A DNA stretch of 64,000 nucleotides from Chlamydiota bacterium. GTDB taxonomy: Bacteria; Auribacterota; JACPWU01. The DNA is taken from contig JACOUC010000035.1 in NCBI GenBank assembly GCA_016178055.1, positions 77,325 to 141,324 on the forward strand, given 5' to 3'. Both the position numbers and the translations under genes were made by a program. Shown here piece by piece: positions 12,913 through 57,350 of this stretch. Below the pieces are notes generated by a model, which worked only from the letters and a program-made list of their open reading frames with translations, did not search any database and was not told the DNA's origin. Position 1 is the stretch's first letter. The number at the start of each line of letters is the position of its first letter.

Positions 12913-12954
12913 GATCAGAAAATTCCTAAAGAATTGAAACCCATTCGCGCATTT

Positions 12955-28078: not shown

Positions 28079-28249
28079 TCATCGCCCATCATACCTATAG
28101 CCTCCGTATCCCATGATCCGAGGACCATCGAAAAATTCTGGTCCAAACTGTTTCGCAATTCGAATAATTTCTGGGGTCTTTTCCTTAACCCTTTGATCGT
28201 AATCCCGAAGGGTTTTAGGTTGGGAGTTTAAAAAATCAATTTCTGACAT
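28079..28249 (-). pseudogene. Remnant 5' fragment (56 codons) of the SAM methyltransferase gene, a duplicate of 26683..26863.
   Basis: Translation MSEIDFLNSQPKTLRDYDQRVKEKTPEIIRIAKQFGPEFFDGPRIMGYGGYRYDGR stops, whereas the intact gene reads MAEINLLNSHPKALRDYDQRAKEKTSEIIRIAKQFGREFFDGPRVMGYGGYKYDGRW. Confidence 0.6.
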
Positions 28250-35603: not shown

Positions 35604-35811
35604 ATTCCAAGGGCTCCTTTACAATTTGATCCCAATATTTTTCTATCCAGGCAACAACACCTCCAACACCTTCATTCAAAGAGATTTTATTTGACCATCC
35701 TAATGTCTTTCTCGCCTTCGTCGAATCAATCACATAAGCTTGATCTTGTCCCAAGCGCTCCGGTGCAACAACCGTAACATCCTCAAAAGATTTTCCTAAA
35801 ACAAATGTCAC
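35587..35811 (-). pseudogene. Orphan C-terminal fragment of an NDP-sugar 4,6-dehydratase/epimerase.
   Basis: ...VAPERLGQDQAYVIDSTKARKTLGWSNKISLNEGV... is a dehydratase C-terminus. A second copy of the same 3' end is found at 38272..38424. Confidence 0.55.
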
Positions 35812-38271: not shown

Positions 38272-38940
38272 TAGGGCTTGTGAACATAATCCAAAGGCTC
38301 CTTCGTAACTTGATCCCAAAATTGATCAATCCAATTCACAACCCCTTTAAGACCTTCTTCGAGAGAAATTCTTGAAGACCACCCTAAAGTTTTCCTCACT
38401 TTTGTCGAATCAATCACATAAGCTTTATCTTGTCCCAAAGGCAGCGTAGGGAGTCGAGGGATTCATGGGAGAAGTCTCTGTCACATTCCCCTCACAGGTT
38501 CCATAAACCTCGGGAGAAGAAATATGTACATATCGCTTCAAATATTTCTTATCTTTGAGATGATGAATTAATTGCGCCAAGGCCACGGTATTGGTCTGAA
38601 ACCAATGATGAGGATTTTCCCAACTTGGAGCCACTTCGCTTTGCGCTGCAAAATTAACGATGTATTCTGGCTGAAACTGATCCAAAGTTTCTAAAATACG
38701 CGACATGTCTTTATTAAAATCCAATTGATGAAATTTAAAATTCCCATTTACAGAGTGGCGTTTATAGGGCAAAAAAAGCTCCGTCTTTTCTGGAGAACGG
38801 CTCGCCCCCATCACTTCGAAACGCCCTTCCTCTAAAAGCAAATCTATAAAATCACTTCCAGAGAAAGAATTGCTTCCAAGGACTGCAACCTTTTGTCTTC
38901 TGTGTTCTGTCTTCTGTATTCTGTCTTCTGTATTCTGCAT
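38272..38940 (-). pseudogene. NDP-sugar 4,6-dehydratase gene with a large internal deletion and frameshift.
   Basis: The N-terminal 171 codons (VLGSNSFSGSDFIDLL...PYAA) stop at 38425. The C-terminal ~45 codons (LGQDKAYVIDSTKVRKTLGW...) continue in another frame, and about 130 central residues are absent. Confidence 0.6.
38893..38940. repeat. Imperfect 7-bp (CTGTNTT) / 14-bp tandem repeat, ~3 x 14 bp, at the 5' end of the dehydratase pseudogene.
   Basis: ttgtcttctgtgtt ctgtcttctgtatt ctgtcttctgtatt ctgcat read directly from the sequence. Confidence 0.6.
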
Positions 38941-42257: not shown

Positions 42258-43841
42258 TTATTTCAAAAGGGTTTCCATACTTTTCAGGAGTCCAATCTTC
42301 GAAATGGCCAGCCCTGTCCCCATGACACCCACCTTTTCAGCCGCCGCAAGATTACCGAGCAGCAAGGAAAGATCGGTAGGAAGGCCTCCTCCAAAGCAGG
42401 CAGACGTAATCCCGAGCAACGTGTCTCCAGCCCCAATACGGTCCACCACTTTATTTGCAAAGGGTGGACAACTTAAGAAACCCTCTTCTTCCCGATAAGC
42501 CAAAGCCCCTTTCACACCTCTGGTCATGACAACGGTTTCACATCCCATCCGGCGATAAAGTTGTTCAACCAGAACTTTTTCATCCTTGGTTCGTGTTCTA
42601 TATTCATGACGCAATTCCCCCTCGTGAATACAAACATAATCTGCTCGGGGATATTTTGAAATGGTGTGATAACCAATGTTAGAAGCATTTACCTGAGTAT
42701 TAACAGCTAAAAATTTTTTCTCCTTCATTAAAAACTCTACAATCTTCTCTGAAATTAAGCCATGCCCATAGTCTGCCACAATGATAAGGTCATGATCTGG
42801 TAAATGCTGCTTCAATTTTGAGAGAAGAACATCTTCTTCATCACTTGTGATCAGTTCATCATTGATTTCATAAACTCCGAAAAGCTTAGACTTCGTATAA
42901 GCATCCACATAACGCGTTTTCACAAGAGTCGGGGAATTGGATTTTGTGATGCAATCTAGATGAACATTGGGTTTCAGATGATTTAAAACAAAATCGTTTC
43001 GATCTCGAGTATTGCCCTCATAACTCGCAATGGTGATTTTCTGGCAAAAATCTGACAGGTGATTCGCGATCGCTAACACGCCCCCTGCATAAGCCTCTGT
43101 TTGAAGTTTTTGCATGACCAGCATCGGTTCTTTTGCAGACTTCCCAATGGCATTACAAAAAACATATTCATCTATAATGGCTTCACCGATTAAAAGAACT
43201 CTAAGACTGGATAATTGGCTCAAATATTCTCTAATGGCCTGGGAAGAATATTTCCCTTTGATCCGATCGAGATACTCCATTTGCTCTCTCGTATAAAGGG
43301 GAAAATGCTGATTTAAAAGAGCTGACGAGCTAAACGTAACATCATTCGTATACCGAATTTCTCCATTCACAAAGCGTACCGACTCCTCTTCGAGGCCAAT
43401 CATCCCCGTCACATCCTTTTGATGATCGCGATAGTCAGGCCCCTTTACATAAATATGAGGCTTCAAACACCGAATCGTTTCCACTGCGGTAGGCCATTCG
43501 TTGATGGCCACGTGATCAACAACATCTAAACTGGCGATCATTTCTGCGCGATGGTCCTGCGTAAAAACCGGGCGCATCGGACCCCTATTCACAAATCGGT
43601 CAGGCGTTAACGTGACCACCAAAATATCTCCCATGGCCTTGGCCTCTTTAAAATATCGCAGATGTCCCACATGTAATAAATCAAAGACTCCATGGCAGTG
43701 AACGATTTTTTTATCTTGCAAACGAAGGGCTTCAAGCTCTTGCGCTAAAACATCAAGGGTTTTAATTTTTCCATCTTTCAGTTGTAACATAAACTTATCC
43801 ACGGAGATGATCTTGAATACAATCTGCAATTTTCGAAACAA
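42258..43841 (-). CDS. Bifunctional sugar nucleotidyltransferase / PfkB-family kinase (HldE/RfaE-like, but with domain order reversed).
   Basis: N-terminal cytidylyltransferase-like HxGH (CHGVFDLLHVGHLRYF) and C-terminal ribokinase-family DRIGAGDTLLG. Confidence 0.8.
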   Translation of the reverse strand: MFRKLQIVFKIISVDKFMLQLKDGKIKTLDVLAQELEALRLQDKKIVHCHGVFDLLHVGHLRYFKEAKAMGDILVVTLTPDRFVNRGPMRPVFTQDHRAEMIASLDVVDHVAINEWPTAVETIRCLKPHIYVKGPDYRDHQKDVTGMIGLEEESVRFVNGEIRYTNDVTFSSSALLNQHFPLYTREQMEYLDRIKGKYSSQAIREYLSQLSSLRVLLIGEAIIDEYVFCNAIGKSAKEPMLVMQKLQTEAYAGGVLAIANHLSDFCQKITIASYEGNTRDRNDFVLNHLKPNVHLDCITKSNSPTLVKTRYVDAYTKSKLFGVYEINDELITSDEEDVLLSKLKQHLPDHDLIIVADYGHGLISEKIVEFLMKEKKFLAVNTQVNASNIGYHTISKYPRADYVCIHEGELRHEYRTRTKDEKVLVEQLYRRMGCETVVMTRGVKGALAYREEEGFLSCPPFANKVVDRIGAGDTLLGITSACFGGGLPTDLSLLLGNLAAAEKVGVMGTGLAISKIGLLKSMETLLK

Positions 43842-44179
43842 TCTTCATGCATTGGATACAAACCCTCTCGTCTGGCTCGAAGTTTGGAAGGACACTGCTG
43901 AGAGGATATTTTGATGGAAGATAAATCGAAATCTAGTAAATCACATTCATCTTCGGAAACAACTATTTCTTTTCCTGCTTTTCTAAGCAACATTATTAAT
44001 TCATGTATGTTATGAGTCTTCTTTAAACCCATCGACAATTCTATACACAACGCCTTGAGATATTTTTCTGAAGATTGTTGTAAGTTTTGAAGACAGGGGT
44101 TGTAAAGATGGCTTTTAAGCAATATCTTTGCTGCCTCAAGATTCTCTTCAGCATATTTGGAGCCAATCATGAGTTTCAT
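43778..44179 (-). CDS. HEPN-domain protein (toxin-like partner of the upstream nucleotidyltransferase).
   Basis: 133-aa helical protein with a KKTHNIHEL R/K-x4-6-H-like motif, overlapping the MNT gene by 4 nt. Confidence 0.55.
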   Translation of the reverse strand: MKLMIGSKYAEENLEAAKILLKSHLYNPCLQNLQQSSEKYLKALCIELSMGLKKTHNIHELIMLLRKAGKEIVVSEDECDLLDFDLSSIKISSQQCPSKLRARREGLYPMHEDCFENCRLYSRSSPWISLCYN

Positions 44180-44481
44180 CGTTCATAGACAATCTCCCCC
44201 CTATTTATTTCCGATAAAAAGAAATCATTTTGTACATGGGGTCTTACCGGGATGATGTCTACAGCGATTTTAAGAAGCACAGGACGTATTTGCTTTCTAT
44301 ATTTTAAAGCTAGTTGTAGATATGATTTGTTGCTGCTTTGAAATATTGCTACATCCATGTCATGCGGATTTTCTGATTTTAAAAATGAACCAAATATAAC
44401 AATACGCTGAATCTCTTTGTCGGATGAAAGACAGGAAACAAGTTCTTTCGTCAATTCTTTTTTTAAAGGGGCCGTAAACAT
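44176..44481 (-). CDS. Minimal nucleotidyltransferase (MNT) domain protein.
   Basis: IVIFGSFLKSENPHDMDVAIF (GS...D.D). Confidence 0.7.
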   Translation of the reverse strand: MFTAPLKKELTKELVSCLSSDKEIQRIVIFGSFLKSENPHDMDVAIFQSSNKSYLQLALKYRKQIRPVLLKIAVDIIPVRPHVQNDFFLSEINRGEIVYER

Positions 44482-44543
44482 ATTTTTCTAATCCACGTTT
44501 GCCAAAAATTACTCCATTCTCCTAAAACAAACTTCCTAATCTG

Positions 44544-45580
44544 TTAACCCAGATGCTTAAACCAATCTTTCGTCGCAACTTCAATAGAATCTTTATCCCA
44601 GAGCGGGGCATCCCGCCACGCGTCAATGTGATCCAGCATGATGCGAACACCCTTTTGAAAGGAAACTTTGGGTTGCCAGTGTAAAATCCGCTTTATTTTA
44701 TTGATATCCGCAAAGGTACAATTGGGTTCTCCAGGTCGTTTGGGAATATGAATCACATCCCCGCCCAATAATTCTACCAACTCGTTCACACGATAAGTAT
44801 TCCCAGACCCCACATTAAAAATCTCGCCTGACACATTTGATTCGGCTGCCCGAAGAAGTGCATCCGCTACATCCGTGACAAAAGTAAAATCTCTGGTTTG
44901 ATTACCATCTCCCACAACGGTGAAGGGTTTCCCCGCTAATTTCTGGGCCAGAAAAACACCAAAAACCGCCCCATAAGTTCCTGTTGTCCTAGACCGAGGA
45001 CCATACACATTAAAAAATCGAAGAGAAACGGCAGGCATCTTGTAAGTCTTCTCCCAGTGAAGCACATATTGTTCACCCAAATATTTGGTTAAAGCATAAG
45101 GGTACATCGGTCGAATCGGCGCCGTTTCTGGCGTAGGATATTGATCGGGAATTCCATAACAAGAAGAAGAAGCTACGTAGATAAAGCGTTTGACACCTGA
45201 CAAGCGTGCTGCCTCTAAAACGGAGACTGTTCCATCGACATTTGATCGATGATATTTGAGAGGTTCTTGAATTGAAGGGACAATATCAGCCAAGGCAGCT
45301 AAATGAAAAACCCAGTCTATGTTTTGAAATAAAGGCCTTATGTCAATCACATTTTCGACACCCATTTTATAAATCTTTAGCCCGCATTTCTCATCAGATT
45401 TCGTCGCGAGAGCGCCGAGTCCGCTTTGGATGCGAGGAAGACGACCGAGGCCATGCGAGGCATACTTTACAGTATGTTGAGCGTGGCCGACCGAGTCTGA
45501 CGAAGCAGACGAGGCGGAAGCAGACGTTCGACCAGATGACTTCCGATAAAACCAGCTCCTCCTGTAACCAAGCAACGCAT
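44544..45580 (-). pseudogene. NAD-dependent epimerase/dehydratase gene disrupted by a truncated copy of the MITE-like element.
   Basis: ATG at 45580 gives MRCLVTGGAGFIGSHLVERLL, then runs into the element and hits TAA. The rest of the protein (KIYKMGVENVIDIRPLF...HLAA...YxxxK...) is in a different frame, and about 35 residues of the Rossmann region are replaced. Confidence 0.6.
45378..45520. mobile_element. Truncated second copy of the MITE-like element (left terminal inverted repeat present, right one absent).
   Basis: tagcccgcatttctcatcagatttcgtcgcgagagcgccgagtccgctttggatgcgaggaagacgaccgaggccatgcgaggcatacttt... is about 90% identical to 6680..6820. Confidence 0.55.
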
Positions 45581-45581
45581 C

Positions 45582-46940
45582 TTAATAAACTCCCTCAACA
45601 GCTGTTCTCTCACCGAGAAAATCTGTACTCCAAGCTAGACGAGGTCGAACAGTACCACACCATCTCCCATAATATTCTTTCCTCATTTCACCTGTATCGT
45701 GAACATTAAATGACAGAACATAATCTTGAAGAATTTGTGTATCCGAAATCCCTTTACCAATAATGGCCGCAATACTATAGAGTCCTTCATTTAAAAAATT
45801 ACCGGGTATGATACATACAGTCTGAAACAGACCCACCGGATAAGGTTGTCCGCTCCATGGGTCTTCGGTCAATGAAATGGATCTATGATTACTAGAAGAA
45901 AGAACGTAAGTTCCGACCGGATCTCGTAGCCAAATTGCTGCATACAATTTTGTTTGCGATTTCAAATTCCAATAGGTAATCTCAATTCGAATTTCCTTCG
46001 ATATATCTACATCTGCCGTAGGTCCTTCCACCCCATCCTGAAAAATTCGTACTGAATGAAGACGAACAAGGTCATTCCCGGGAGCATTCGCAACATCTGG
46101 CCAAACCATCTCTCCTCCTAAAGAGCGAGCCACGGCCAGATACTCCTGAACAACTTCAGCGGCAGATCCATTTTTAACCACTTCTCCTTCTTTTAAGAGA
46201 AGAGCTCTCGGGCACAAATTCATAATGCTCGGCATATTGTGAGATACAATCACAACCGTGCGCCCCTCTTTCGCAACATCCCCCATTTTTCCCAAACACT
46301 TCTTCTGAAATTCGGCGTCGCCAACAGCAAGAACCTCATCCACCAAAAGCACCTCAGGCTCCAGATGTGCCGCAACAGCAAACGCTAACCGCACATACAT
46401 TCCGCTTGAATAGCGTTTGACAGGCGTATCGATAAACTTCTCCACTTCAGCAAAAGCAACAATTTCATCAAATTTTCTTCGAATTTCGATTCGTTTCATC
46501 CCCATGATCGCGCCATTGAGAAAAATATTTTCTCGCCCCGTAAGCTCTGGATGGAAGCCCGTCCCCACTTCCAAGAGGCTTCGAACACGACCGTGAATTT
46601 CCGCCCTGCCCTCTGTGGGCTCTGTAATGCGGGAAAGAATTTTGAGGAGCGTACTTTTCCCGGCGCCATTGCGACCAATGACACCAACGACCTCGCCTTG
46701 CTTGATTTCAAAAGAGACATCTTTCAACGCCCAAATTTCATTATCGTTCAAAGGTTCAAAGGTTGAAGAGTTCAAAGATTTTCCAAAGTTCTGTAATCTT
46801 CTGATCTTCGAGTTGGCGAAACGAAAAGGGGCTGTAGCAAGCTGCGTTAAACGATCGCGAAAACTATAGTAACACTCCCGCTCCCCAATTTTGTAGAGCT
46901 TCCCTACATTTTCAACCCGAATGGCGATGTTGTCAGACAT
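45582..46940 (-). CDS. wzt: O-antigen/polysaccharide ABC exporter ATP-binding protein (Wzt-like, with a C-terminal glycan-binding extension).
   Basis: Walker A GRNGAGKST, signature SGM, Walker B LLVDEVLAVGD, and a ~200-aa C-terminal beta-rich domain. Confidence 0.85.
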   Translation of the reverse strand: MSDNIAIRVENVGKLYKIGERECYYSFRDRLTQLATAPFRFANSKIRRLQNFGKSLNSSTFEPLNDNEIWALKDVSFEIKQGEVVGVIGRNGAGKSTLLKILSRITEPTEGRAEIHGRVRSLLEVGTGFHPELTGRENIFLNGAIMGMKRIEIRRKFDEIVAFAEVEKFIDTPVKRYSSGMYVRLAFAVAAHLEPEVLLVDEVLAVGDAEFQKKCLGKMGDVAKEGRTVVIVSHNMPSIMNLCPRALLLKEGEVVKNGSAAEVVQEYLAVARSLGGEMVWPDVANAPGNDLVRLHSVRIFQDGVEGPTADVDISKEIRIEITYWNLKSQTKLYAAIWLRDPVGTYVLSSSNHRSISLTEDPWSGQPYPVGLFQTVCIIPGNFLNEGLYSIAAIIGKGISDTQILQDYVLSFNVHDTGEMRKEYYGRWCGTVRPRLAWSTDFLGERTAVEGVY

Positions 46941-46970: not shown

Positions 46971-47171
46971 TCACTTCGAAACTAACTCTCGAATCGTTTT
47001 AGCCTTGATTCTGCCCAATCTGGGTATTTGCATTAACTCTTCCTCTGTTGTAAGAGCAATGTCATATTTCTTCGTCAGAATATCCCCTATGCCAGCATCG
47101 TTCTCTCGAAAATCCATTCTGATATTCAACGGCAAATACCCCATGAGAGTATGAATTCTTATCGTATTCAT
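46971..47171 (-). CDS. Small helix-hairpin-helix-like protein (hypothetical).
   Basis: ELMQIPRLGRIKAKTIRE HhH-like motif. Overlaps another small ORF (47062..47340), so the boundaries are uncertain. Confidence 0.3.
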   Translation of the reverse strand: MNTIRIHTLMGYLPLNIRMDFRENDAGIGDILTKKYDIALTTEEELMQIPRLGRIKAKTIRELVSK

Positions 47172-47299
47172 TTGTTAATTGTGCTTGCTCTAGCCACATA
47201 TCCCAATAGGCAAAGAGCTCTTCCTCCGATAAATTGCGCAAATCAAGATCTTCTTCACTTAAGAATTCGTCTTTTATTTTTTCCATCATCAAATCCTCC

Positions 47300-48082
47300 T
47301 CAAACTGAAAACGGCAGCACCCCAGATGCCCGAGTTGCAATTAGATGATGCGCTTCAAGAAGAGGATATCCTCGCACCTCTTTCTCCACTTGAATCCACA
47401 TCTTTGACCATTCCTCAGCCGCTTTCATGTAGGCCTCTAGTCGCGCTTCATTTGCATGAATAAGATGTCGTTTCTCCTCATCAAGTGCTTGTTCAAGAGC
47501 TAACCTGCCTTGCGAAATTTTACCCAGGAGAGGGCGTTCGATTACAAGCTCTAACAAAATTTCAGGATGTTTTGCTGCAAGCATCATAATATCTCTTGCA
47601 CTCCTTGAGTAAAGCATTTGATCCTTTGCACTGGAGAGCATCCGAGCCAGTTCCCCAATCACAGCATAATCCTTCTCCCGATTCGTCTCTTTTATTTCTA
47701 TCAAGGTCTTAATATCCACAAAAGGAATATCCTTTCCTTCTTGTTCTACCCATAGTCTATCCAAAGCAACTTGGGGTATTCTCGGGGGACGCGTAACAAA
47801 ATCCGTCCTTACTCGTAAATTGTTATAGCCAAATTCCAGATGAGAACTCCAACCACCCGATAGCCATCGAACATCCAAGGGTGCTCCAAATCGGTATTGT
47901 GCCCCATACTGGGACAAAACTTGCAAAACATGCCCCAGGGTCTCAAGTTCTTCTTTGAGTATCCAATCACCATCCTTACTCATCACAGCAAGATGGTGTA
48001 ACACGACGGCCTGACCCGAGGAAAGAACTGCCCGCAGTTTTCCTTCATTAAATCGTTCCGTCAATTCAACATAGATATTCAT
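47300..48082 (-). CDS. Nucleotidyltransferase-like hypothetical protein (paralog B, probably a degenerate active site).
   Basis: LSSGQAVVLHHLAVMSKDGDWIL and IPFVDIKTLIEIKETNREKDYAV align with 35808..36620. Confidence 0.5.
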   Translation of the reverse strand: MNIYVELTERFNEGKLRAVLSSGQAVVLHHLAVMSKDGDWILKEELETLGHVLQVLSQYGAQYRFGAPLDVRWLSGGWSSHLEFGYNNLRVRTDFVTRPPRIPQVALDRLWVEQEGKDIPFVDIKTLIEIKETNREKDYAVIGELARMLSSAKDQMLYSRSARDIMMLAAKHPEILLELVIERPLLGKISQGRLALEQALDEEKRHLIHANEARLEAYMKAAEEWSKMWIQVEKEVRGYPLLEAHHLIATRASGVLPFSV

Positions 48083-48110
48083 TTACACCCCATCCACAAA
48101 AAATCGGTCC
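48083..48110. repeat. Degenerate copy 4 of the wzm 3'-end motif (TTACACCCCATCCACAAAAAATCGGTCC).
   Basis: Aligns with 50005..50036. Confidence 0.5.
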
Positions 48111-48116
48111 ATCTTT

Positions 48117-48539
48117 TCAAACTTCCAAGAACACCGTCTTAATCCCCAATGCATTTGCGGATTTTGAAAAGGCCCGGTCTGCGGTCAAGGGGGTTAAATC
48201 TTCTGACACGGCAACGGCCAAATGCAGCGCATCGAAACTTCTCAGAGGCGTGCTAAACTCTCCAAGCCAATCCCTGGCCAGCCGATAATGGTGAGTCTCA
48301 ATGGCAACCTTCAAATAAAAACTTCCCTCAGCATGAGAAAGATATCTTGCAAGAACTCGCCTGCCATCTGTGGACTGCATTTGTCCTTCACGAATCTTTC
48401 TGGACACCGCTGAAAATAATTCTACCTCCGTCAAAGGGCTGATGACAGATTGTCCCCTCATGAGATAATGTTCCACTTTATCGCTCAAAGCTTCAGGGCA
48501 ATAGTAGGCGACCAAAACGCTCGTATCGATATAAAACAT
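48117..48539 (-). CDS. vapC: PIN-domain ribonuclease toxin (VapC-like).
   Basis: MFYIDTSVLVAY and the DALHLAVA acidic residues. Confidence 0.8.
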   Translation of the reverse strand: MFYIDTSVLVAYYCPEALSDKVEHYLMRGQSVISPLTEVELFSAVSRKIREGQMQSTDGRRVLARYLSHAEGSFYLKVAIETHHYRLARDWLGEFSTPLRSFDALHLAVAVSEDLTPLTADRAFSKSANALGIKTVFLEV

Positions 48540-48790
48540 TAACAGCGTTCCTCACCTCTGGCTCGAATCACAAGAGAACTTAAGGATTCACCCTTCATGC
48601 GAATCGTCGAGCGAAACGCCTTTAGACTTGGCAGATGCCGAACTCCTCTTTGAGGAGGAATGAGACGAGCCACCTCCTTACCATGACGAAGAATACTCAC
48701 CTCATCCCCTTCCTGAACCCGGTTTAGCAAGGAAGCAAACTGATTCCTCGCCTCTTTAACATTGATATTCACGATTGTCCTCCTCTCCAA
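48539..48790 (-). CDS. Type II antitoxin (Phd/YefM- or VapB-like).
   Basis: 83-aa protein with a 1-nt overlap to the PIN gene. N-terminal KEARNQFASLL...ARLIP. Confidence 0.65.
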   Translation of the reverse strand: MERRTIVNINVKEARNQFASLLNRVQEGDEVSILRHGKEVARLIPPQRGVRHLPSLKAFRSTIRMKGESLSSLVIRARGEERC

Positions 48791-48854
48791 CTATGTACAC
48801 AATAAGAGTACACTATTCTGAAGAGGATGTAAAGCAAATTAAACCCATGTTCTC

Positions 48855-48886
48855 TTACACTACATCCGCAAAAAAACGCTCCGTTC
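48855..48886. repeat. Copy 3 of the wzm 3'-end motif (TTACACTACATCCGCAAAAAAACGCTCCGTTCC).
   Basis: Aligns with 50005..50036. Confidence 0.55.
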
Positions 48887-48916
48887 CTTTCTGATATTCA
48901 AAATGTGGTACCTCCC

Positions 48917-49279
48917 CTACACCGCGAGTGTCGTCGTTGCAACAAATCGATGCGCAATATTATCTACCATGACCCCAAAACCTTCTAACGTACGCACTCC
49001 AAGAAGATGCATATCCCCCTTTTCAGCAAAGACAACTTCGTCAATGGTTTCAAAGCCCTCAACACGCAAAACCGCATAGCCCACTTCTCTTTCGACAAGT
49101 TGCTTGGTTGCCGTTTGAAAACTTCGTTTTCGAAGAGGTAAAACCCCTATTCCCATCAGGACCTCTGCCGGTAACCAGGTCAGCTCTGAGCCTGTATCTA
49201 CGAGCACCTCAAGAGGCAAGGTGCTCTTTTTCAAATCAGATGGATGAAGCGCAATCACATTGACTTTAAATATACTCAT
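48917..49279 (-). CDS. Retropepsin-like (clan AA) aspartic protease domain protein, second copy.
   Basis: VDTGSELTWLP D-T-G-S motif in a 120-aa protein. Confidence 0.55.
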   Translation of the reverse strand: MSIFKVNVIALHPSDLKKSTLPLEVLVDTGSELTWLPAEVLMGIGVLPLRKRSFQTATKQLVEREVGYAVLRVEGFETIDEVVFAEKGDMHLLGVRTLEGFGVMVDNIAHRFVATTTLAV

Positions 49280-49361
49280 ACACAGACCTCCCTCACCAGC
49301 ATTTTAGCATGTATCAGATTCCTGGACTCGATTTAGCAAAGAAGCAAATTGACCCCATTTT

Positions 49362-49388
49362 TTACACCACATCCGCAAAAAATAGTTC
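49362..49388. repeat. Copy 2 of the wzm 3'-end motif (TTACACCACATCCGCAAAAAATAGTTC).
   Basis: Aligns with 50005..50036. Confidence 0.55.
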
Positions 49389-49411
49389 TTTTCTTCTAAA
49401 GTAAGACATAT

Positions 49412-49651
49412 TTATCTTTGCACCTTGTCATGAAGAAACTCAGGAGCCAGATCCAAACCATTTTCCCAAACGATGGTATCCATTTCTACTTTAAACTTCT
49501 TAAACCTCTTTTCATCTTTTAACTCCTTGACGATCGACCTATGATCATGATGAACCATCTCATGCAAATCCACAATCCCCTCGATTTTATCATTAAAAAA
49601 AACCCTTATTTTAAAATTCTCTACATATTCTGCCTTGACAACCCAATACAT
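49412..49651 (-). CDS. DUF2442-like small protein.
   Basis: 79-aa protein ending in ...WENGLDLAPEFL, typical of DUF2442. Confidence 0.55.
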   Translation of the reverse strand: MYWVVKAEYVENFKIRVFFNDKIEGIVDLHEMVHHDHRSIVKELKDEKRFKKFKVEMDTIVWENGLDLAPEFLHDKVQR

Positions 49652-49786
49652 TTTTATGCCCTCCTAAACCAATTGTATTGAACATGAAAATGGGGAGGAG
49701 AATGATCATTGAAGTACATACAAATAACCATCCCAAGAAACCTGCTTATTTCTGGCATCTCATACCCTCTTCTATAATTTTATTTT

Positions 49787-49919
49787 AGGCATATGCACTT
49801 GACTTAAAGATGTCGTCCATTTGTAGTCACCCCATTTATGGGGCCATGCATGGATTGCCCGATAAATCGGGCGACTACGCTTGACGGATCAAGAATACTT
49901 GAGTCAAGTGTATATGCCT
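49787..49919. repeat. 133-bp nested palindromic element. Outer inverted repeat AGGCATATGCACTTGACTT/AAGTCAAGTGTATATGCCT, with a 56-bp core GTAGTC-[hairpin]-CATGCATGG-[hairpin]-GACTAC.
   Basis: Read directly. Inner hairpins are GCCCCATTTATGGGGC and GCCCGATAAATCGGGC. Related to the element at 62492..62774. Confidence 0.55.
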
Positions 49920-50004
49920 TTTTTATTTTAATAAAACAATCCCTGTTTTCACCAAGTTTCGCCTTTGTCCATTCATGCTATTGATCCTGAGCACTCGCCT
50001 ATCC

Positions 50005-50036
50005 TTACACCACATCCGCAAAAAAGCGCTCCGTCC
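50005..50036. repeat. Master copy of the motif TTACACCACATCCGCAAAAAAGCGCTCCGTCC, which is the last 9 codons plus stop of wzm.
   Basis: Encodes RTERFFADVV* of the Wzm permease. Confidence 0.6.
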
Positions 50037-50859
50037 TACGAAAATAAAAAAGTCCGCCCACAAAAATAATAACGGCCACAGCAACAGAAATTCCTAAAGA
50101 GCCCCAATGAATGGGTTGATGTGCGAGGAAACAGGCCCGATGGGCCTCGATTAAACCACTCATGGGATTGAGCATCAAAAGCCAGCGATATTTTTCTGGC
50201 ACCATTGAAGCGGGATAAATGACCGGCGTTGCGAAGAGCATCAACTGAATAAAAAAGGGAAGCGCATATTGAATGTCCCGATATTTCACATTAAGCGCGG
50301 AAAGCCAAAGCCCCCACCCTGTCGCAGCGATCATCGAGAAGAAAACAATCGCGGGGAGCATGAGAAAAGACACACTGGGAGGAAAGCCGTAGTAAAACAT
50401 CATGCCCAGGAGAATAACCACCGCAATGGCATAGTCCATCAATCCCGAAAGAGTGGCTGAAAGAGGGATCACAAGTCGTGGGAAATACACCTTGGTCAAG
50501 AGATTTGAACTCCCCACGAGACTCGCCCCTGAGTGAGAGAGGGCTCCTGAAAAATAAGTCCAAAGAAGAAGCCCTGAATAAGAAAAAATAGGATAAGGAA
50601 CGCCATCCGAGGGAAGGCGGGCAATTTTTCCAAAGAAAATGGTGAATACGACCATGCTAAAGAAAGGTTGGATAATCGCCCAAAGAGCCCCCAAAACCGT
50701 TTGCTTATACCTGACCTTGATATCCCGCCAGGTCAGAAAATAGAGAAGCTCCCTAAAATCCCACAAGGCCTTCCAATCAATGGGAACCCATCCCTTGGAA
50801 GAACGAATGATGATTTTGGGAATAGAAGAAACCGATGAAGCTGATATTTCCTGAGCCAT
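50005..50859 (-). CDS. wzm: ABC-2 type polysaccharide exporter permease (Wzm-like).
   Basis: About 6 predicted TM helices and ABC-2 family features in a 284-aa protein. Confidence 0.85.
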   Translation of the reverse strand: MAQEISASSVSSIPKIIIRSSKGWVPIDWKALWDFRELLYFLTWRDIKVRYKQTVLGALWAIIQPFFSMVVFTIFFGKIARLPSDGVPYPIFSYSGLLLWTYFSGALSHSGASLVGSSNLLTKVYFPRLVIPLSATLSGLMDYAIAVVILLGMMFYYGFPPSVSFLMLPAIVFFSMIAATGWGLWLSALNVKYRDIQYALPFFIQLMLFATPVIYPASMVPEKYRWLLMLNPMSGLIEAHRACFLAHQPIHWGSLGISVAVAVIIFVGGLFYFRRTERFFADVV

Positions 50860-50890: not shown

Positions 50891-53296
50891 CTATTTCTTG
50901 AGCGCCTCTGCCAGAACATTCCAAACGTGGTTCAATTTGTTCAAAACTTCCTCATTAGGAAGCGGAATTTTTAAAATAGGCCGCCCGGTGTTCTGATCCT
51001 TTTCAACAAAAGATGAAAAAGAAGTTGATCCCGAAGAAGATTTTGAAATGACGTCTCTCAATTTTTCGAGCAGTGTAACACCCGCCGTCATCAGTTCATG
51101 CATGGGTTGAAGGGGCGCCTCAGCTCCCTCGGATTCTTGTTCCTCTCTTTCAAACTCTGAACCGGTGTCTTGCGTGACCTCTTTAGGCTCAAGCTTGGGG
51201 GCGACCCCAGAAGAAGACTTTGCCACAAGCTCCACCGTCTTCATAAAGCGCTTAAACCTGTCTTCTCCCATAAAGACCTCGCTTTGACCCCCATCCAAAA
51301 CCCCTTCGAAAAGGGATCTCTTAAATTTGAGAAGTTTCAGCAACTCCTCTTCAATGGTCCCTGAAGAGATAAAGTGAACCACATGAACAGGTTTCTTTTG
51401 CCCCAGCCGATGAACCCTCGCGATACGCTGCTCCAAAACAGCCGGGTTCCAGGGACAATCCAAATTGATGACCATGGAGGCACATTGTAGATTGAGCCCC
51501 ACACCCCCTGCGTCTGTGGAGAGAAACACTCTTGCCTTAGGATCGTGATGAAACCGGTGCAAGAGATCCTTGCGCTGCCGACTCGGCACCCCGCCATGCA
51601 AAGATTCAAATCCAACTCCAATCTCTTCGAGTCGTTCCGCTACCAAACGCGTCATCCTTTCCCACTGACTGAAGATCACGACCTTTTCTTCCTCTCGCTC
51701 AAATACCTCTTTTAGAAATGTCATCATCTCATCAATTTTAGGCCCTTTGCGAGTCTTCTCATCCAAAATAAACGTGTTATTACTCACCATGCGCATGGAA
51801 TTGAGGCAAATCATCAAGATCTGCCGATCCTTTTCAGACAAAAATTTAAACCGCCGCCATTTGTTGACCAAACGACAAACGGTCTCGTAATTTTCCTGAT
51901 GAATTTTCCATTGTTCTTCTGTGACCGGAACAAAAAAATGCTTCTCGATTCGGGGCGGCAACTGCTCAAGCACCTCTTTTTTGTGACGACGGATGAGAAT
52001 AGAAGAGAGGCTCGAGCCAATTTCATGCAAGGACCGGTAGCCCACCACCTTTCCATTTTCATCCAAAACTTGATGCTTCTCCAAAAATCGAAAGAGCGGC
52101 CCCAATTTAAAACGATCCACAAATTCCACAATCGAGTGAAGTTCTTCAAGACGGTTCTCCAGAGGCGTTCCCGTAAGAACAAGCGCATAAGGAGATGCGA
52201 TTCTCTTAATATTTCGAGCCGTTCTGGTTTTCCAATTTTTAATGCGCTGGGCCTCATCCAAAATCACCAAATCCGGGGAAAATTTTTGAATAACCTCTAA
52301 ATCATTTTGAACCGCATGATAGGTCGCGATCTTAAAAAATTCAGGCCCCAAATATTGCTCTCTTCTCTTAAGAAAAGATCCCTCAATGGCGCATGCGGAC
52401 CGCGTTGTAAACTTTTCTATCTCCGAGAGCCATTGATACTTTAAAGACGTTGGGCAAATGACAAGAACCTTCTCAATCCCAAATTCTTTCGCCATCAACT
52501 CGGCTGCCCCCATCGCTTGAATCGTCTTCCCTAACCCCATGTCATCCGCGATCAGGGCACGGCCTGCCTTTGCCGCAAAGAGAATGCCTTCCTTCTGATA
52601 GGGATAAAGCGAGGTCTTAAGAAGCGCATCCAAACGAGGGTCATGAACCCCTTGTGAATACCGCTCCTCTATCAAACGCCGTCTGCGACGATCCTCCCTC
52701 ATCTCAACAATAAATTGAAACGCATCAGAGTAACAGCGGAATTGCGGATCGAGTCTTAGTACCGCCTCCAGGAATTTTTCGAAGTGATCGTAGGCCTGGG
52801 GGAGAAGGACATGATTCTCATCAAAATATCCTGAGGCGAGCTTCTTCAAAGAATCGATCTGGCGAAGTCCTATCCTCAAGACAACTTTCCTTTCCATCCC
52901 ATACCTCAAAGAGATAGAAGAATAAGACGGCGTAAAACCCTGCTTAAAAATGGCAGAGGCCCCGCGCTTTCTTTTGAGCTGATGAAGCGTGTACTCAATA
53001 TGCTTACAGGTGCCCAACGTATTGATTTTAAAATCGGGGCAGGAACAATAATTAAGACCGATCTTTTCGCTTCGAATCGCGACCTTGTAAACTTTTTGAT
53101 TTTGAGGATTCGTCACCTCAAAATCAGAAAAGACAGGATGCCCATTGAGATTCTTAACCTTGAAATTCTGATCCAACGCATACTGCCGCCGCAAGGCCTT
53201 CTGCCAATCCTCATAAGAGAGATTGGCCGGCTTAAAATAATAGGGGACTCTTTCTGATGACGTGATACGAGATTTCTTAGATTTTTTAGCGATCAT
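50891..53296 (-). CDS. SNF2-family helicase with an N-terminal SWIM zinc finger.
   Basis: CSCPDF...CKH SWIM, DDMGLGKTIQ, DEAQRIKN and a helicase-C region with HRLGQKKPV. Confidence 0.85.
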   Translation of the reverse strand: MIAKKSKKSRITSSERVPYYFKPANLSYEDWQKALRRQYALDQNFKVKNLNGHPVFSDFEVTNPQNQKVYKVAIRSEKIGLNYCSCPDFKINTLGTCKHIEYTLHQLKRKRGASAIFKQGFTPSYSSISLRYGMERKVVLRIGLRQIDSLKKLASGYFDENHVLLPQAYDHFEKFLEAVLRLDPQFRCYSDAFQFIVEMREDRRRRRLIEERYSQGVHDPRLDALLKTSLYPYQKEGILFAAKAGRALIADDMGLGKTIQAMGAAELMAKEFGIEKVLVICPTSLKYQWLSEIEKFTTRSACAIEGSFLKRREQYLGPEFFKIATYHAVQNDLEVIQKFSPDLVILDEAQRIKNWKTRTARNIKRIASPYALVLTGTPLENRLEELHSIVEFVDRFKLGPLFRFLEKHQVLDENGKVVGYRSLHEIGSSLSSILIRRHKKEVLEQLPPRIEKHFFVPVTEEQWKIHQENYETVCRLVNKWRRFKFLSEKDRQILMICLNSMRMVSNNTFILDEKTRKGPKIDEMMTFLKEVFEREEEKVVIFSQWERMTRLVAERLEEIGVGFESLHGGVPSRQRKDLLHRFHHDPKARVFLSTDAGGVGLNLQCASMVINLDCPWNPAVLEQRIARVHRLGQKKPVHVVHFISSGTIEEELLKLLKFKRSLFEGVLDGGQSEVFMGEDRFKRFMKTVELVAKSSSGVAPKLEPKEVTQDTGSEFEREEQESEGAEAPLQPMHELMTAGVTLLEKLRDVISKSSSGSTSFSSFVEKDQNTGRPILKIPLPNEEVLNKLNHVWNVLAEALKK

Positions 53297-54211: not shown

Positions 54212-54865
54212 TCAAAATTCTCTCCCCCCTTTCTCACTCAAAAGCACCGTTTCCCGATCGGATGAATATTCAGCTTTTCCAATGATAAGATCGACAACAG
54301 CCAAAAGCCAAAGCTGATGAATTGTTTCGACAATATTATAGGCCTTACTCCCAACCCATAAATTGATATCCCCCAACTGCCTTAAGGGATTATCAGGCTC
54401 AAATCCTGAAAGCGTTATAATTTTTCCACATTGCTTTTGACGAGCCGCTTGACAACCATTTAAAATATTCTTAGATCGTCCGCTGGAAGAAATCACAATT
54501 AAAGTATCGCCAGGTTCGCCATAAAAATAGACCGCCTTTTCCACCCAGCGTTCATAGCCGTAATCATTTGAGAAGCAAGTAATGAGTCCCGCCTCATTAA
54601 AATTGATACACCGTACACCTGCACTTTTCGTGAGATCAACGCTCAAATGCCCTGCAATTCCGGCGCTTCCGCCATTTCCCGCGACCATCACCTTCTTCCC
54701 AGCCCGCTGAGTCTCTTCCAAAACTTCTTTTATCGAAACAAGAGTATCTAAAACCTCAAACCCTGGGACCAAGGAGGCAGCGGCCATCTCAAAATATTTT
54801 TCTAAGAAGATGCGAGGTTCACCTGGAGTGAACACCCTTTCTTTTTTTTCGGACACTGGACTCAC
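54212..54865 (-). CDS. gmhA: SIS-domain sedoheptulose-7-phosphate isomerase (GmhA-like).
   Basis: VMVAGNGGSAGIAGHLSVDL and IVISSSGRSKNIL. Confidence 0.8.
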   Translation of the reverse strand: MSPVSEKKERVFTPGEPRIFLEKYFEMAAASLVPGFEVLDTLVSIKEVLEETQRAGKKVMVAGNGGSAGIAGHLSVDLTKSAGVRCINFNEAGLITCFSNDYGYERWVEKAVYFYGEPGDTLIVISSSGRSKNILNGCQAARQKQCGKIITLSGFEPDNPLRQLGDINLWVGSKAYNIVETIHQLWLLAVVDLIIGKAEYSSDRETVLLSEKGGREF

Positions 54866-55317
54866 TTCCTTCTTTTAACCTTCTTAGCAAGAACTTTTTC
54901 TGAAACGCAATAATGCTTCAAGAGAGTCTTAGTAAAATCTTCCAAATCCTTCAAATGGTTCTGAAGAATTTTTTTTAATATGTCAACATTCAACTCCTGA
55001 TATTGATGAACAGCAATATTGCGAAATCCAACCATCGCTTGAAGATGCTTCGATAAAGAAGCATCGATTATTTTACCCTCGGCAAGAAATTTAAACTGAT
55101 CTTTAAGGCTGGTTGGCATCCCGAGTTTTTCTTCCGAGACAACATGGGCCGCCAAATCCATGGCGGCTTGAATGGCCCTTTGCAAATTCAAAACGAAAGC
55201 GTCCTGAATCATCATGTCATCCAATTTAGAAGCCTTTAATCCTGTCATCTCGACAATACGCTTCAAACAACGATGAACAATGGCCGATTTTTCTAAAATG
55301 ATGTCTGCGTCAATCAT
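54862..55317 (-). CDS. HepT-like HEPN toxin (DUF86).
   Basis: RNIAVHQY R-x4-HxY motif. Confidence 0.75.
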   Translation of the reverse strand: MIDADIILEKSAIVHRCLKRIVEMTGLKASKLDDMMIQDAFVLNLQRAIQAAMDLAAHVVSEEKLGMPTSLKDQFKFLAEGKIIDASLSKHLQAMVGFRNIAVHQYQELNVDILKKILQNHLKDLEDFTKTLLKHYCVSEKVLAKKVKRRK

Positions 55318-55789
55318 AAATGCTCCATTTCACCAACGCCTTTTCAACAGGGAGGCGAACTTGTTTTAAATCAAAATACTCATTCAAAGCCCTGATGAAA
55401 AATTCCTGAGCGATCCGCGGCTTCTTGACCATTAAACACTTTCCGTATTTAATGACCTGATGCTTCAAAATGGGTGAAACCTCATCCAAATTAACCAAGT
55501 CCACATCTCGATTAAACTTTTCTGAAAGCTCCATCTTCATTTGAACGAGCTCTCTATACGATGGATCCTTTCCCCTCTCGTACAAAAGGCCCATATCAAT
55601 ATCACTCCAACGATTCTGCTGACTTTTAGCAAAAGAACCATAGAGATAGACGGCCACAAGATGCGTACGCGGACGCCTTTTGAAATAAACTGAAACCTCC
55701 TTTTCAATCTTTTCGGAATTCATCACGCCGCCGCCTCTTGCCGGGGATATCTCCAATAAAGCCCATCGGCAATTCCTTTCGAAAGCCAT
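55310..55789 (-). CDS. MntA-like nucleotidyltransferase antitoxin.
   Basis: VYLYGSFAKSQQNRWSDIDMGLL. Confidence 0.75.
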   Translation of the reverse strand: MAFERNCRWALLEISPARGGGVMNSEKIEKEVSVYFKRRPRTHLVAVYLYGSFAKSQQNRWSDIDMGLLYERGKDPSYRELVQMKMELSEKFNRDVDLVNLDEVSPILKHQVIKYGKCLMVKKPRIAQEFFIRALNEYFDLKQVRLPVEKALVKWSIYD

Positions 55790-56964
55790 TGGGCAAAAGG
55801 AAGCGCCGAGGTCATTCCGGGAGAGACCACATTCAAGAGATGAATGGAACGGCGAGTCGTTTCAACTACCAAATCATCTTGAAATTGGCCGTCCGATCGA
55901 ATGAGCTGGGCCCGAATTCCAACTCTTTTGGCTAAAGTTAAATCTTCTAATCGAAGTCCATCCACTAGTCGGCTTGCCTCTTTTAAAAAATGTTTTTTGC
56001 TGCACGAATTTTTTAATTCACTCCAAGCGACCTCCCTTAAGAGGCGATTTGTTCGAAGGGCCTTCCAAAGTCCGCGATGAAAAATCATTTGAGAAAAATC
56101 TTTCAAATTAAAACTCCATTTACTGTAGGCCTCTCTTCCAAAGGCTGGAACGGCATTGGGCCCAATGAGAATCGAACCTGCAATAGTTTTAGTGAGATGA
56201 ACTCCCAAAAAAGGAAATTCAGGATTGGGAACGGGATAAATCATGGAATTGATAATGGAGACGCTTTTTCCTCCCACTACAAAGTACTCCCCTCGAAAAG
56301 GATTAATCATATATTCCCGACCCACCTTCATTAAGTGGGCCAAGCGATCGGCATGAAGGCCCGCACAATTAATCAACAATTGAGCCTGATACGTCCATCG
56401 ATTTGTTGAAACCTTAACCTCGTCTTTTCTTTCCTTAATGTGCATCACTTCTTCCCCAAATCCAAAACCAACCCCCAACCGCTCGGCATCGTCACGCAAG
56501 GCTTGGGCAAATTTTACTGAATCGACAATGGCGCCCGTAGGGGAAAAAAGGGCCGCAAGACCCTTGACATTGGGCTCACGACGACGTACTTCTTCGATGG
56601 AGAGGATTTCAATTCCAGGAACCCCATTTTTATCTCCCTTCGCCTTTAATTGATGAAGACTAGGGAGCTCCTCCTCGCGGGTTGCAACCACATAAGTTCC
56701 CACCTCTTCACAAGGAATCTGTCTTTCCTTGCAATAAGCCCGAGTCTGACGATTTCCATCCACACAAAGCTGGGCCTTTAATGTACCGGGCTTTTGATTA
56801 AATCCAGAATGAATGACACCGCTATTGCGCCCGCTGGTATGAAAGGCAACGCCATTTTCTTTTTCCAAGACGAGCACGCGATCAAAACGCCGCCCTAATT
56901 CTTTTGCGAGAGAACACCCCACAATCCCTCCCCCCACAATAAGAATGTCATAGAGACGGTTCAC
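55723..56964 (-). CDS. FAD-dependent L-2-hydroxyglutarate oxidase/dehydrogenase-like (LhgO family).
   Basis: YDILIVGGGIVGCSLA dinucleotide motif and overall LhgO-like length and architecture. Confidence 0.75.
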   Translation of the reverse strand: MNRLYDILIVGGGIVGCSLAKELGRRFDRVLVLEKENGVAFHTSGRNSGVIHSGFNQKPGTLKAQLCVDGNRQTRAYCKERQIPCEEVGTYVVATREEELPSLHQLKAKGDKNGVPGIEILSIEEVRRREPNVKGLAALFSPTGAIVDSVKFAQALRDDAERLGVGFGFGEEVMHIKERKDEVKVSTNRWTYQAQLLINCAGLHADRLAHLMKVGREYMINPFRGEYFVVGGKSVSIINSMIYPVPNPEFPFLGVHLTKTIAGSILIGPNAVPAFGREAYSKWSFNLKDFSQMIFHRGLWKALRTNRLLREVAWSELKNSCSKKHFLKEASRLVDGLRLEDLTLAKRVGIRAQLIRSDGQFQDDLVVETTRRSIHLLNVVSPGMTSALPFAQWLSKGIADGLYWRYPRQEAAA

Positions 56965-57350
56965 AAACGACTCTCTAAAAGATTCAGTAATCTTTTCATC
57001 AAAGGGGCATAAATTTTAACATCTTTATAAATCTCTTCTGCTATATTTTCATCGTAAGTATGTGAAGTTTTATTTCTACTATCTGTCATCTTCAATAAGA
57101 GTTCTGTGTCTTCAGCCGTGGTAAGCCCCGCTGAAAAAACTTCTCTGAAACATGATTTAGGCGAGTTAGTCTCACTCCCTTCTTTCTCTCTGAGATAAGA
57201 CCGCATCAATTTCCAAAACACTTCGAAGGTATACTCAAATCTCTGAATGGTTGCGTCTCTCACAATGACGGAGTAGCGCTCTTTGAGAATCGCTTCTAAA
57301 GTCTTGAACGCTTTTTTAGCACTCTGATACTTTAAATCTAATTCTTCCAT
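56961..57350 (-). CDS. HEPN nucleotidyltransferase substrate-binding protein (HI0074-like).
   Basis: RNKTSHTYDE R-x4-H motif. Confidence 0.7.
   Translation of the reverse strand: MEELDLKYQSAKKAFKTLEAILKERYSVIVRDATIQRFEYTFEVFWKLMRSYLREKEGSETNSPKSCFREVFSAGLTTAEDTELLLKMTDSRNKTSHTYDENIAEEIYKDVKIYAPLMKRLLNLLESRL

Follow-up and report, generated by a model that had tools for sequence, protein, structure and literature searches.

A 64,000-nucleotide (nt) stretch of contig JACOUC010000035.1 (assembly GCA_016178055.1), hereafter called the window, carries the polysaccharide-export genes wzm (50859..50005) and wzt (46940..45582) on either side of an array of small accessory genes. Coordinates refer to the window unless another locus is named, and all genes in the wzm-wzt interval lie on the minus strand. 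An initial annotation of this DNA had proposed that the two genes are normally adjacent and stand about 3 kb apart here, and that copies of the wzm 3' end bound the accessory units between them. Both observations hold. The two genes are separated by 3065 nt, compared with gaps of less than 300 nt, mostly 0-10 nt, in 61 of 77 other loci holding both wzm and wzt (the gap is larger in the other 16). One of the four motifs is the present end of wzm, and the other three are former ends now displaced downstream.

The wzm gene encodes an ABC-2 permease of 284 amino acids (aa; Pfam ABC2_membrane, 1.6e-21), and its C-terminus, YFRRTERFFADVV followed by a stop, agrees with the conserved Wzm end of 67 homologues. 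The last 32 nt of the gene constitute R0 (50005-50036), within which a 21-nt core occupies 50005-50025. From the wzm side, R0 is followed by an element resembling a miniature inverted-repeat transposable element (MITE), a DUF4160 fragment, a DUF2442 gene, R1, a Phd antitoxin remnant, a retropepsin-like gene, R2, a Phd/VapB and PIN/VapC pair, R3, a gene for a 260-aa protein, its small partner open reading frame (ORF), an ERCC4/HhH remnant and, finally, wzt. The MITE-like element, the DUF4160 fragment and the Phd-gene remnant are extras beyond the four main units. All cassettes are co-oriented, with sizes of 0.5-0.8 kb.

The MITE-like element (133 nt, 49787..49919, no strand assigned) lies between R0 and the DUF4160 fragment and has 21-nt terminal inverted repeats (I3) that are 90% complementary, as well as an internal double hairpin. 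Both of its flanks carry AAAATAAAA, and the element is not present in the related lineage L089. Rfam searches gave no match to this element or elsewhere, either over the whole window at the gathering threshold or over 49300-50100 at E<=1, and a tRNA scan of the window found none. The DUF4160 fragment is a truncated 34-aa ORF (49654..49758; PF13711 gene call), a partner of DUF2442 that is 99.4% identical in L089, and it is followed by the DUF2442 gene itself (79 aa, 49412..49651; Pfam E=6.5e-8). R1 (42 nt, 49362..49403) encodes SYFRRKELFFADVV followed by a stop and adjoins the remnant of a second Phd/VapB-type cassette (49313..49361). This remnant comprises a left end and the N-terminal codons QFASLLNRVQE, and its direct repeats D4 and D8 are 85% identical to 48710-48743 and 48832-48851.

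The next unit is a gene for a retropepsin-like (clan AA) aspartic protease of 120 aa (48917..49279; Pfam gag-asp_proteas 1e-5, TIGR03698 3.4e-9). R2 (48855..48886), which encodes TERFFADVV-stop and whose left flank shares homology with the one beside the lone L089 repeat, separates this gene from the vapBC cassette (48117..48790), made up of a Phd/YefM antitoxin gene at 48539-48790 and a PIN toxin gene at 48117-48539 (Pfam 4.3e-10 and 7e-14). R3 (48083..48114) encodes a peptide ending in DRFFVDGV-stop, and its TAA abuts the ATG of the 260-aa gene (47300-48082). Together with the small partner ORF at 47062-47289 (or to 47340), this gene, which matches no family, forms a two-gene module (47062..48082). 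The array closes with the HhH-domain remnant of an ERCC4/Hef-type nuclease gene (46971..47171), which in L089 is intact and followed by a YhcG nuclease gene. The product of wzt is an ABC ATPase of 452 aa (Pfam ABC_tran 9.9e-23) with a weak Wzt_C match.

As had been reported, the last 32 nt of wzm recur at 49362, 48855 and 48083. The full 32-nt end is exact at 50005 and carries three mismatches at 48855, with zero occurrences expected from 100 shuffles. Its 21-nt core, TTTTTTGCGGATGTGGTGTAA, has 0, 0, 1 and 2 mismatches at 50005 (R0), 49362 (R1), 48855 (R2) and 48083 (R3), respectively, and when up to five mismatches are allowed, only one further match, with five mismatches, appears in the 64 kb. 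Each of R0 to R3 finishes in TAA and encodes a Wzm-like C-terminus. The displaced copies sit 8 nt (DUF2442), 30 nt (retropepsin-like) and 2 nt (vapC) 3' of the stop codon of the preceding unit, and no longer wzm remnant is hidden between those stop codons and the repeats when the window sequence is read through. Overall, repeat lengths in the window range from 21 to 42 nt.

The copies had been described as progressively decaying from a master sequence, with similarity to wzm falling with distance. This trend is present only in the 21-nt core, where R1, R2 and R3 agree with R0 at 21, 20 and 19 positions. Over 32 nt the identities run 26, 29 and 26, and thus the decay with distance from wzm is not monotonic. 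Within the ten codons of TERFFADVV-stop, R2 departs from R0 by two synonymous differences and no others. R1 matches the L089 wzm allele at 38 of 42 positions, versus 33 of 42 for the window's own allele. Because the differences are mainly synonymous and the copies match different wzm alleles, each copy was once the working gene end of a distinct allele, and R1 to R3 are displaced former wzm ends rather than decaying copies of one master.

The related lineage L089 is a 97-kb contig of GCA_016178005.1, and L002/L090 represents a second metagenome-assembled genome (MAG) of the same strain. Starting from wzm and its repeat, the L089/L002 order is vapBC, 24 nt without a repeat, the DUF4160 fragment, a truncated DUF2442 gene, R1, a Phd remnant, an internally deleted retropepsin gene, a single decayed repeat, the 260-aa gene in degraded form, a small ORF, an intact ERCC4/Hef-like nuclease gene, a YhcG/DUF1016 nuclease gene and wzt. 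These related strains therefore differ from the window in both the presence and the order of units. In particular, vapBC lies directly after wzm in L089 and between R2 and R3 in the window, whose retropepsin-R2-vapBC-R3-260-aa arrangement represents an occupied site. The corresponding retropepsin-single repeat-260-aa arrangement of L089 is the empty site, and the two differ by exactly one element plus one repeat. The conserved left end of vapBC adjoins the repeat in three copies. At the distal boundary of vapBC in L089, no repeat is found in the 24 nt after vapC.

Several candidate traces of the underlying events were set aside. The sequence ACGAGCGT, considered as the 5' half of a repeat within the 24 nt after vapC in L089, was too weak to be used. 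A crossover in the T6 run was dropped because both halves of the single L089 repeat resemble R2 and R3 to the same degree. Likewise, the deletion that truncates DUF2442 in L089/L002, which extends from a T8 run to the T6 run of R1, was dropped as a crossover trace and is attributed to ordinary microhomology deletion. The L089 orthologue of the distal copy R3 has an indel and has lost its stop codon. Stranded copies are thus not maintained, and this one, having decayed freely, is under no selection as a site.

Nucleotide identities between the window and L089 allow the units to be ranked by age. Values for surrounding genes are 73-77% (NusG), 70% (DAO) and 84-86% (downstream sugar genes), and the 260-aa unit, at 78-83%, is at this background level. 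Far higher values are found for vapBC (91%), for wzm (about 95%, with 92-98% over nt 61-780) and for the segment from DUF4160 through R1 to the retropepsin gene (95-99%). Because these identities of 91-99% compare with 70-86% for the neighbors, wzm and the proximal units were evidently co-exchanged recently between two divergent co-occurring lineages. The suggestion that older units are pushed further from wzm agrees with these values: judging from sequence divergence, the units nearest wzm look newest, and the 260-aa unit nearest wzt looks oldest. Exact-protein look-ups of VapB, VapC, the DUF2442 protein, the retropepsin-like protein and the 260-aa protein returned no contexts beyond the window and L089 lineages.

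Some details on the wzt side of the array also differ between the two lineages. The ERCC4/Hef-like and YhcG genes of L089 occupy 11442-13087 of that contig, immediately upstream of wzt, and the YhcG ORF is inserted start-to-stop between short ATGAAA-type repeats. In the window, a deletion of ~470 nt has reduced the ERCC4 gene to its HhH end (46971-47171).

A mis-assembly of mixed strains would offer a trivial explanation for the array. The contigs of one MAG do break there: in GCA_016196915.1 the array lies on two contigs that overlap by 141 nt in the retropepsin gene (window 48912-49052), and base 48912 is where a Logan k=31 contig and one MAG's MEGAHIT contig both stop. Furthermore, the part shared with L089 at 99% identity could suggest chimerism. 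The window and L089 diverge exactly at 48912, after the retropepsin stop codon. Because the break base is the divergence base, the assembly graph might have been broken by co-occurring array variants, which suggests that such variants co-exist in the sampled population. The window order is supported by the 141-nt overlap, by Logan contigs that span R1 and R3 in this order, and by the accessions of another MAG, which run consecutively from MBI1870559 (VapC) to MBI1870564 (Wzm) in an order inferred from accessions alone. VapC and Wzm of this MAG apparently share a 205,580-bp contig, which the protein records give as the longest for both, and the L089 gene order is itself present in two MAGs.

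The motif might alternatively recur by chance or because it serves as a terminator or ribosome-binding-site (RBS) element, but its distribution and composition argue otherwise. A terminator and promoter scan found nothing terminator-like at the repeats, and when the 111 nt surrounding each repeat were folded as single-stranded DNA, for either strand, the z-scores lay between -1.8 and +0.7 and no conserved hairpin appeared. Across ~75 loci translated in six frames, the peptide pattern F[AV]D[VI][VIL]-stop occurs only at Wzm ends and in the array copies. Thus, the repeat motif is no terminator and no general regulatory element, contrary to one reading that the initial annotation had left room for. 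An alignment of 67 Wzm genes places the conserved C-terminal block, YF[RK][RK]xExxFAD[VI][VI]-stop, in the last 14 codons, and conservation in these genes is at the protein level, with third-codon positions at 0.04-0.16 bits. An RBS constraint was also rejected as the cause of the identical 21-nt core because third-codon positions are near random across the 67 genes and so are unconstrained across phyla. Given these various lines of evidence, an artefact of assembly, a chance motif or a regulatory motif is scarcely credible.

Comparable arrays are found at other wzm-wzt loci. Extra wzm ends are present in L079, a Thermodesulfovibrionales MAG whose units are an HTH-PIN pair, a TumE pair and a gene for a 23S-rRNA-intervening-sequence protein (IVP), and in L205, a metagenome contig with an IVP gene and then an MNT-HEPN pair. 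R2', the distal copy in L079, and the resident wzm end disagree at five sites, each time by a synonymous change. The mirror image, in which copies of the wzt 5' end starting from the ATG flank the cassettes, is found in L024 (three copies; 11906-13609), L011 (13468-13511), L109 and, weakly, L003 (copy at 12086), and these copies cover about the first 16 codons (~48 nt). The units in L024, a Chloroflexota MAG, are an IVP gene, a YafQ/RelE-type pair, a UPF0175-DUF3368 pair and HicBA, and the unit in L011 is DUF5678 plus a retropepsin-like gene. L205 and L109 emerged from a degenerate motif scan of metagenome contigs in which, among the 120 stretches listed, ~30 were wzm ends and the remainder were chance matches. 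These sequences show that the wzm-wzt junction is a recurrent insertion hot spot across phyla. The comparison also shows that the incoming units are small self-contained selfish modules, namely toxin-antitoxin pairs, retropepsin-like genes, and PD-(D/E)XK or ERCC4 nucleases.

Gene-end duplication extends beyond wzm and wzt. In the window, the ATG-proximal 170 nt of a methyltransferase gene are duplicated with the reading frame kept (28080-28249 vs 26682-26851, 81% identical), and ~150 nt of an epimerase-like 3' end are duplicated as well (38275-38424 vs 35590-35740, 76% identical). Both duplications flank DUF1016/YhcG PD-(D/E)XK nuclease genes (27979-26924 and 38108-37074). Gene-end stranding is not universal, because a homologue of the 260-aa module beside priA has no priA-end duplicate.

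Other features of these loci merit mention. Two of the wzt-end copies in L024 have a common internal deletion, and the 5' region of that wzt contains an 8-nt tandem repeat (CAACGTTC). IVP genes (PF05635, related to the Avd protein of diversity-generating retroelements) form single-gene units in three independent arrays, at L079 12884-13249, L024 10883-11239 and L205 1033-1446. Three further metagenome contigs, L182, L101 and L136, have single insertions directly after wzm that resemble, from translated sequence only, an Rpn/PDDEXK_2-type nuclease (310 aa), a GxxExxY PD-(D/E)XK protein and a PIN-domain protein, and no gene-end duplicates were detected in these three. Directly upstream of wzm, the window has a gene for an 801-aa SNF2-family helicase (50891-53296) where L089 instead has an MNT/NTase_sub_bind pair, and further MNT/HEPN-type pairs lie in the surrounding polysaccharide locus (54862-57350 and ~43780-44500). 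Downstream of wzt, a ~160-nt repeat with terminal inverted repeats (TAGCCCGCATTTCTCATCA) at ~45370-45520 interrupts the 5' part of an epimerase gene, and a second copy that is 95% identical lies at 6680-6862. The window also includes 15 nt at 45532 that are not in the NCBI contig.

More than 2600 homologues of the 260-aa protein, ~60% identical across phyla, make up a family for which there is no Pfam or NCBIfam model. An ORF of ~55 aa lies 3' of the homologue in both of the two neighborhoods checked, which are unrelated genomic contexts. The gene and its small ORF thereby appear to be a widespread two-gene module from a large, conserved and unannotated family. The label of nucleotidyltransferase-like that had been given to this gene is only weakly supported: the AlphaFold 2 model (AF2; mean predicted local distance difference test score, pLDDT, 90) has its best Foldseek match to Pol-beta-fold nucleotidyltransferases, a weak one (E=0.005), and there is no family match.

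The array and its counterparts show serial insertion at one junction, with each event supplying a new gene end and stranding the old one. How the joining occurs is a separate matter. Tentatively, and with a confidence that falls somewhat short of even, we favor the view that the repeats are scars left at a hot spot by successive rounds of homology-anchored recombination, each of which placed a new unit beside wzm. Foreign DNA carrying wzm (or its end) together with a cassette would be recombined in by the host's own machinery, with one crossover in homologous wzm and the other join falling within the last 20-40 nt of resident wzm, or, alternatively, with a single crossover within a short conserved block. 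The incoming wzm end would then finish the gene, and the last 7-14 codons of the resident copy would be left behind the new cassette. Repetition of this process could grow the array from the wzm side, and use of wzt as the anchor would strand wzt 5' ends instead. Once present, the short repeats might permit ectopic recombination that moves or deletes cassettes, as might have happened with vapBC, whose relocation the repeats mark: it lies between R2 and R3 in the window but directly 3' of wzm in L089.

The repeats would then be scars that now and again serve as substrates for recombination, and no dedicated integrase would use them as attachment sites. Homology-anchored recombination accounts for why either gene end can be duplicated, why repeats vary in length, why further duplicates exist in the window, why one L089 boundary has no repeat, why no recombinase was found and why wzm was co-transferred. 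The proposal that insertions use one attachment site, at the wzm 3' end, is questionable in light of the wzt 5' duplicates, the YhcG-flanking duplicates, the L089 boundary without a repeat and the transfer of wzm along with its neighbors. Homology-anchored recombination fits these points at least as well as a dedicated attachment-site system does.

A number of findings weigh against homology-anchored recombination, and most of them point toward a different mechanism in which circular cassettes with a wzm-end copy are inserted at the wzm 3' end, duplicating the site, by a tyrosine or serine recombinase acting in trans. Nearly every wzm-side unit boundary in three lineages carries only a short, similar-sized remnant of 21-42 nt, whereas random illegitimate joining would be expected to yield, in many cases, longer remnants or no remnant at all, a discrepancy explained only by assuming that long repeats are unstable. 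Four copies (R0 and R1 of both lineages) agree at every one of the last 21 nt, beside wzm positions -103 to -22 that are only 79% identical, with mostly synonymous differences, which looks like a shared core. Insertion or excision of vapBC was precise at the repeat, as a site-specific enzyme would naturally give, and no donor sequence has been identified for the wzm-end copies. Site-specific integration would also fit the co-orientation of all cassettes, the conserved vapBC left end beside the repeat in three copies, and the restoration of wzm precisely up to its stop codon. A search for XerD-, IntI1- and Hin-like ORFs found none in the window (phmmer E<=1) or within 10 kb of six arrays (L079, L024, L011, L089, L205 and L003), but it covered these loci only and used three approximate query sequences with limited sensitivity. 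Site-specific integration in trans, although we consider it unlikely, stays alive because the remnants are consistently short, the 21-nt core is identical in four copies and the vapBC pair is precise. Its difficulties go beyond the missing recombinase to the lack of an inverted-repeat core or structure, the variable repeat length and the repeat-less right boundary of vapBC in L089. The symmetry of R0 is limited to CGC-T6-GCG and is not found in R1 or R3, and the repeat fails as an 11-6-11 dyad of the Xer/dif type (7 of 11 positions in one arm and 5 of 11 in the other agree with E. coli dif, counted by eye). The wzt 5' mirror duplicates and the 150-170-nt gene-end duplicates would need several enzymes, and co-transfer of the wzm body is not predicted by cassette-only integration. 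Moreover, the exact 21-nt core was not found in virus contigs, and the degenerate motif gave only chance matches there, none in a Wzm-like context, among the 120 stretches listed.

Other mechanisms were considered as well. In an idea that we regard as improbable, the C-terminal block of Wzm (YFRRxExxFADVV-stop) and the N-terminal block of Wzt would be cross-phylum docking sites of a cassette-capture system distinct from integrons, and cassettes without an integrase but with a portable gene-end copy would be moved by a recombinase in trans or by the nucleases found in the arrays (YhcG, ERCC4 or Rpn-like). More doubtful still is a passive, homology-driven platform of the Campbell type, without a dedicated enzyme, in which circles containing a cassette and a gene-end block arise by recombination between repeats and return to the chromosome through one crossover, located in either the 42-nt Wzm-end block or the ~48-nt Wzt-start block. 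The longest remnant, R1 (42 nt), equals the 14-codon conserved Wzm block, and the wzt copies span the first ~16 codons, where a conserved Wzt block is an impression from few sequences; this mechanism would leave a repeat at every event and would explain both gene ends and the relocation of vapBC. However, imperfect identity over 20-40 nt is a poor substrate for RecA, circles have no evident route between cells, and the L089 boundary without a repeat needs a secondary deletion. The initial annotation had likened the array to an integron platform, and an integron array that lacks its integrase, or cluster of attC sites lacking integron-integrases (CALIN), would indeed have cassettes of this size (0.5-0.8 kb), content (toxin-antitoxin pairs and DUFs) and co-orientation, as in chromosomal integron arrays. 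Yet the repeats are 21-42 nt of wzm coding sequence without an imperfect palindrome, related to wzm by homology rather than to one another by shared structure, and no R'' or R' core motifs were seen on reading the sequence. Integron membership fails because no attC-like structure is present at the repeats and no IntI-like ORF was found locally, which makes a CALIN very improbable. Target-site duplication of the transposon, casposon or CRISPR type was rejected because the lengths vary (21-42 nt, ~48 nt for wzt and 150-170 nt elsewhere) and the copies come from more than one allele.

It is poorly understood how selfish modules that have no mobility genes, among them small toxin-antitoxin pairs, enter chromosomes and change position within them. 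The wzm-wzt junction offers a concrete, recurrent insertion point with legible scars, including stranded allele ends, a pair of occupied and empty sites, and a sequence of acquisition, and these allow the joining reaction to be inferred and put to the test. Should the repeats be scars only, the junction would be a cross-phylum hot spot where polysaccharide-export operons gather cassettes of the addiction or defense type, and stranded gene ends would provide a simple rule by which such insertions could be dated. Involvement of a dedicated enzyme would make this a new cassette platform, and if the docking-site system is true, it would explain in general terms the movement of small toxin-antitoxin modules. 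Viewed as recombination scars, the array belongs to a known kind of phenomenon. A literature search found no description of stacked short gene-end remnants, of multi-phylum recurrence at one junction, or of the toxin-antitoxin and nuclease cargo.

Features of two kinds of known process are present together in the array. Repeats of the target gene's 3' end with the gene restored (window, L079 and L205) and the occupied and empty pair are features of tandem integrative elements, and the co-transferred anchor gene and the variable-length remnants of either flanking gene are features of recombination scars. Homology-facilitated illegitimate recombination and the junction remnants of O-antigen and capsule loci usually leave single scars of arbitrary length that are not arrayed. 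They resemble the array in that a homologous anchor and a non-homologous join add foreign DNA, with fragments of the flanking gene at the junction, and in that they affect highly exchanged polysaccharide loci and need no mobile-element enzyme. Here, by contrast, two to three short remnants of similar size are stacked at one junction, and this pattern recurs in several phyla. Integrons and CALINs share with the array small, co-oriented cassettes rich in toxin-antitoxin genes, one repeat per cassette and an order that varies among strains, but the repeats here are homologous to a host gene end and have no palindrome, and no IntI, attI or Pc was found at the locus. Integrative mobile elements exploiting Xer (IMEX), which insert at dif, and the pdif modules of Acinetobacter plasmids are small modules without their own recombinase, often toxin-antitoxin, that have short sites at their borders and rely on a host enzyme for movement. 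These elements are Xer-dependent and pdif sites alternate in orientation, whereas the repeats here are all direct and contain no 11-6-11 dyad of the XerC/XerD type.

The closest parallels are the staphylococcal cassette chromosome (SCC) elements and composite islands found in staphylococci at the orfX/rlmH 3' end, and the tandem genomic islands at the 3' ends of tRNA and tmRNA genes, which have a known recombinase (CcrAB and tyrosine integrases, respectively), a defined core and units of 3-100 kb. In contrast, the units here measure 0.5-1 kb and have no mobility gene, no recombinase was found locally, repeat length is variable, and the 5' end of the neighboring gene can act in the same manner. 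Membership in these families, or among integrons, is not demonstrated, and the comparison is one of analogy. In both SCC elements and tRNA islands, insertion takes place in the 3' end of a conserved gene, the incoming DNA replaces that end, and the old end remains as a direct repeat; repeated events then yield tandem units between repeats, some of which lack a recombinase of their own. By this analogy, the wzm-wzt array seems to work most like tandem SCC elements at orfX and the islands at tRNA gene ends.

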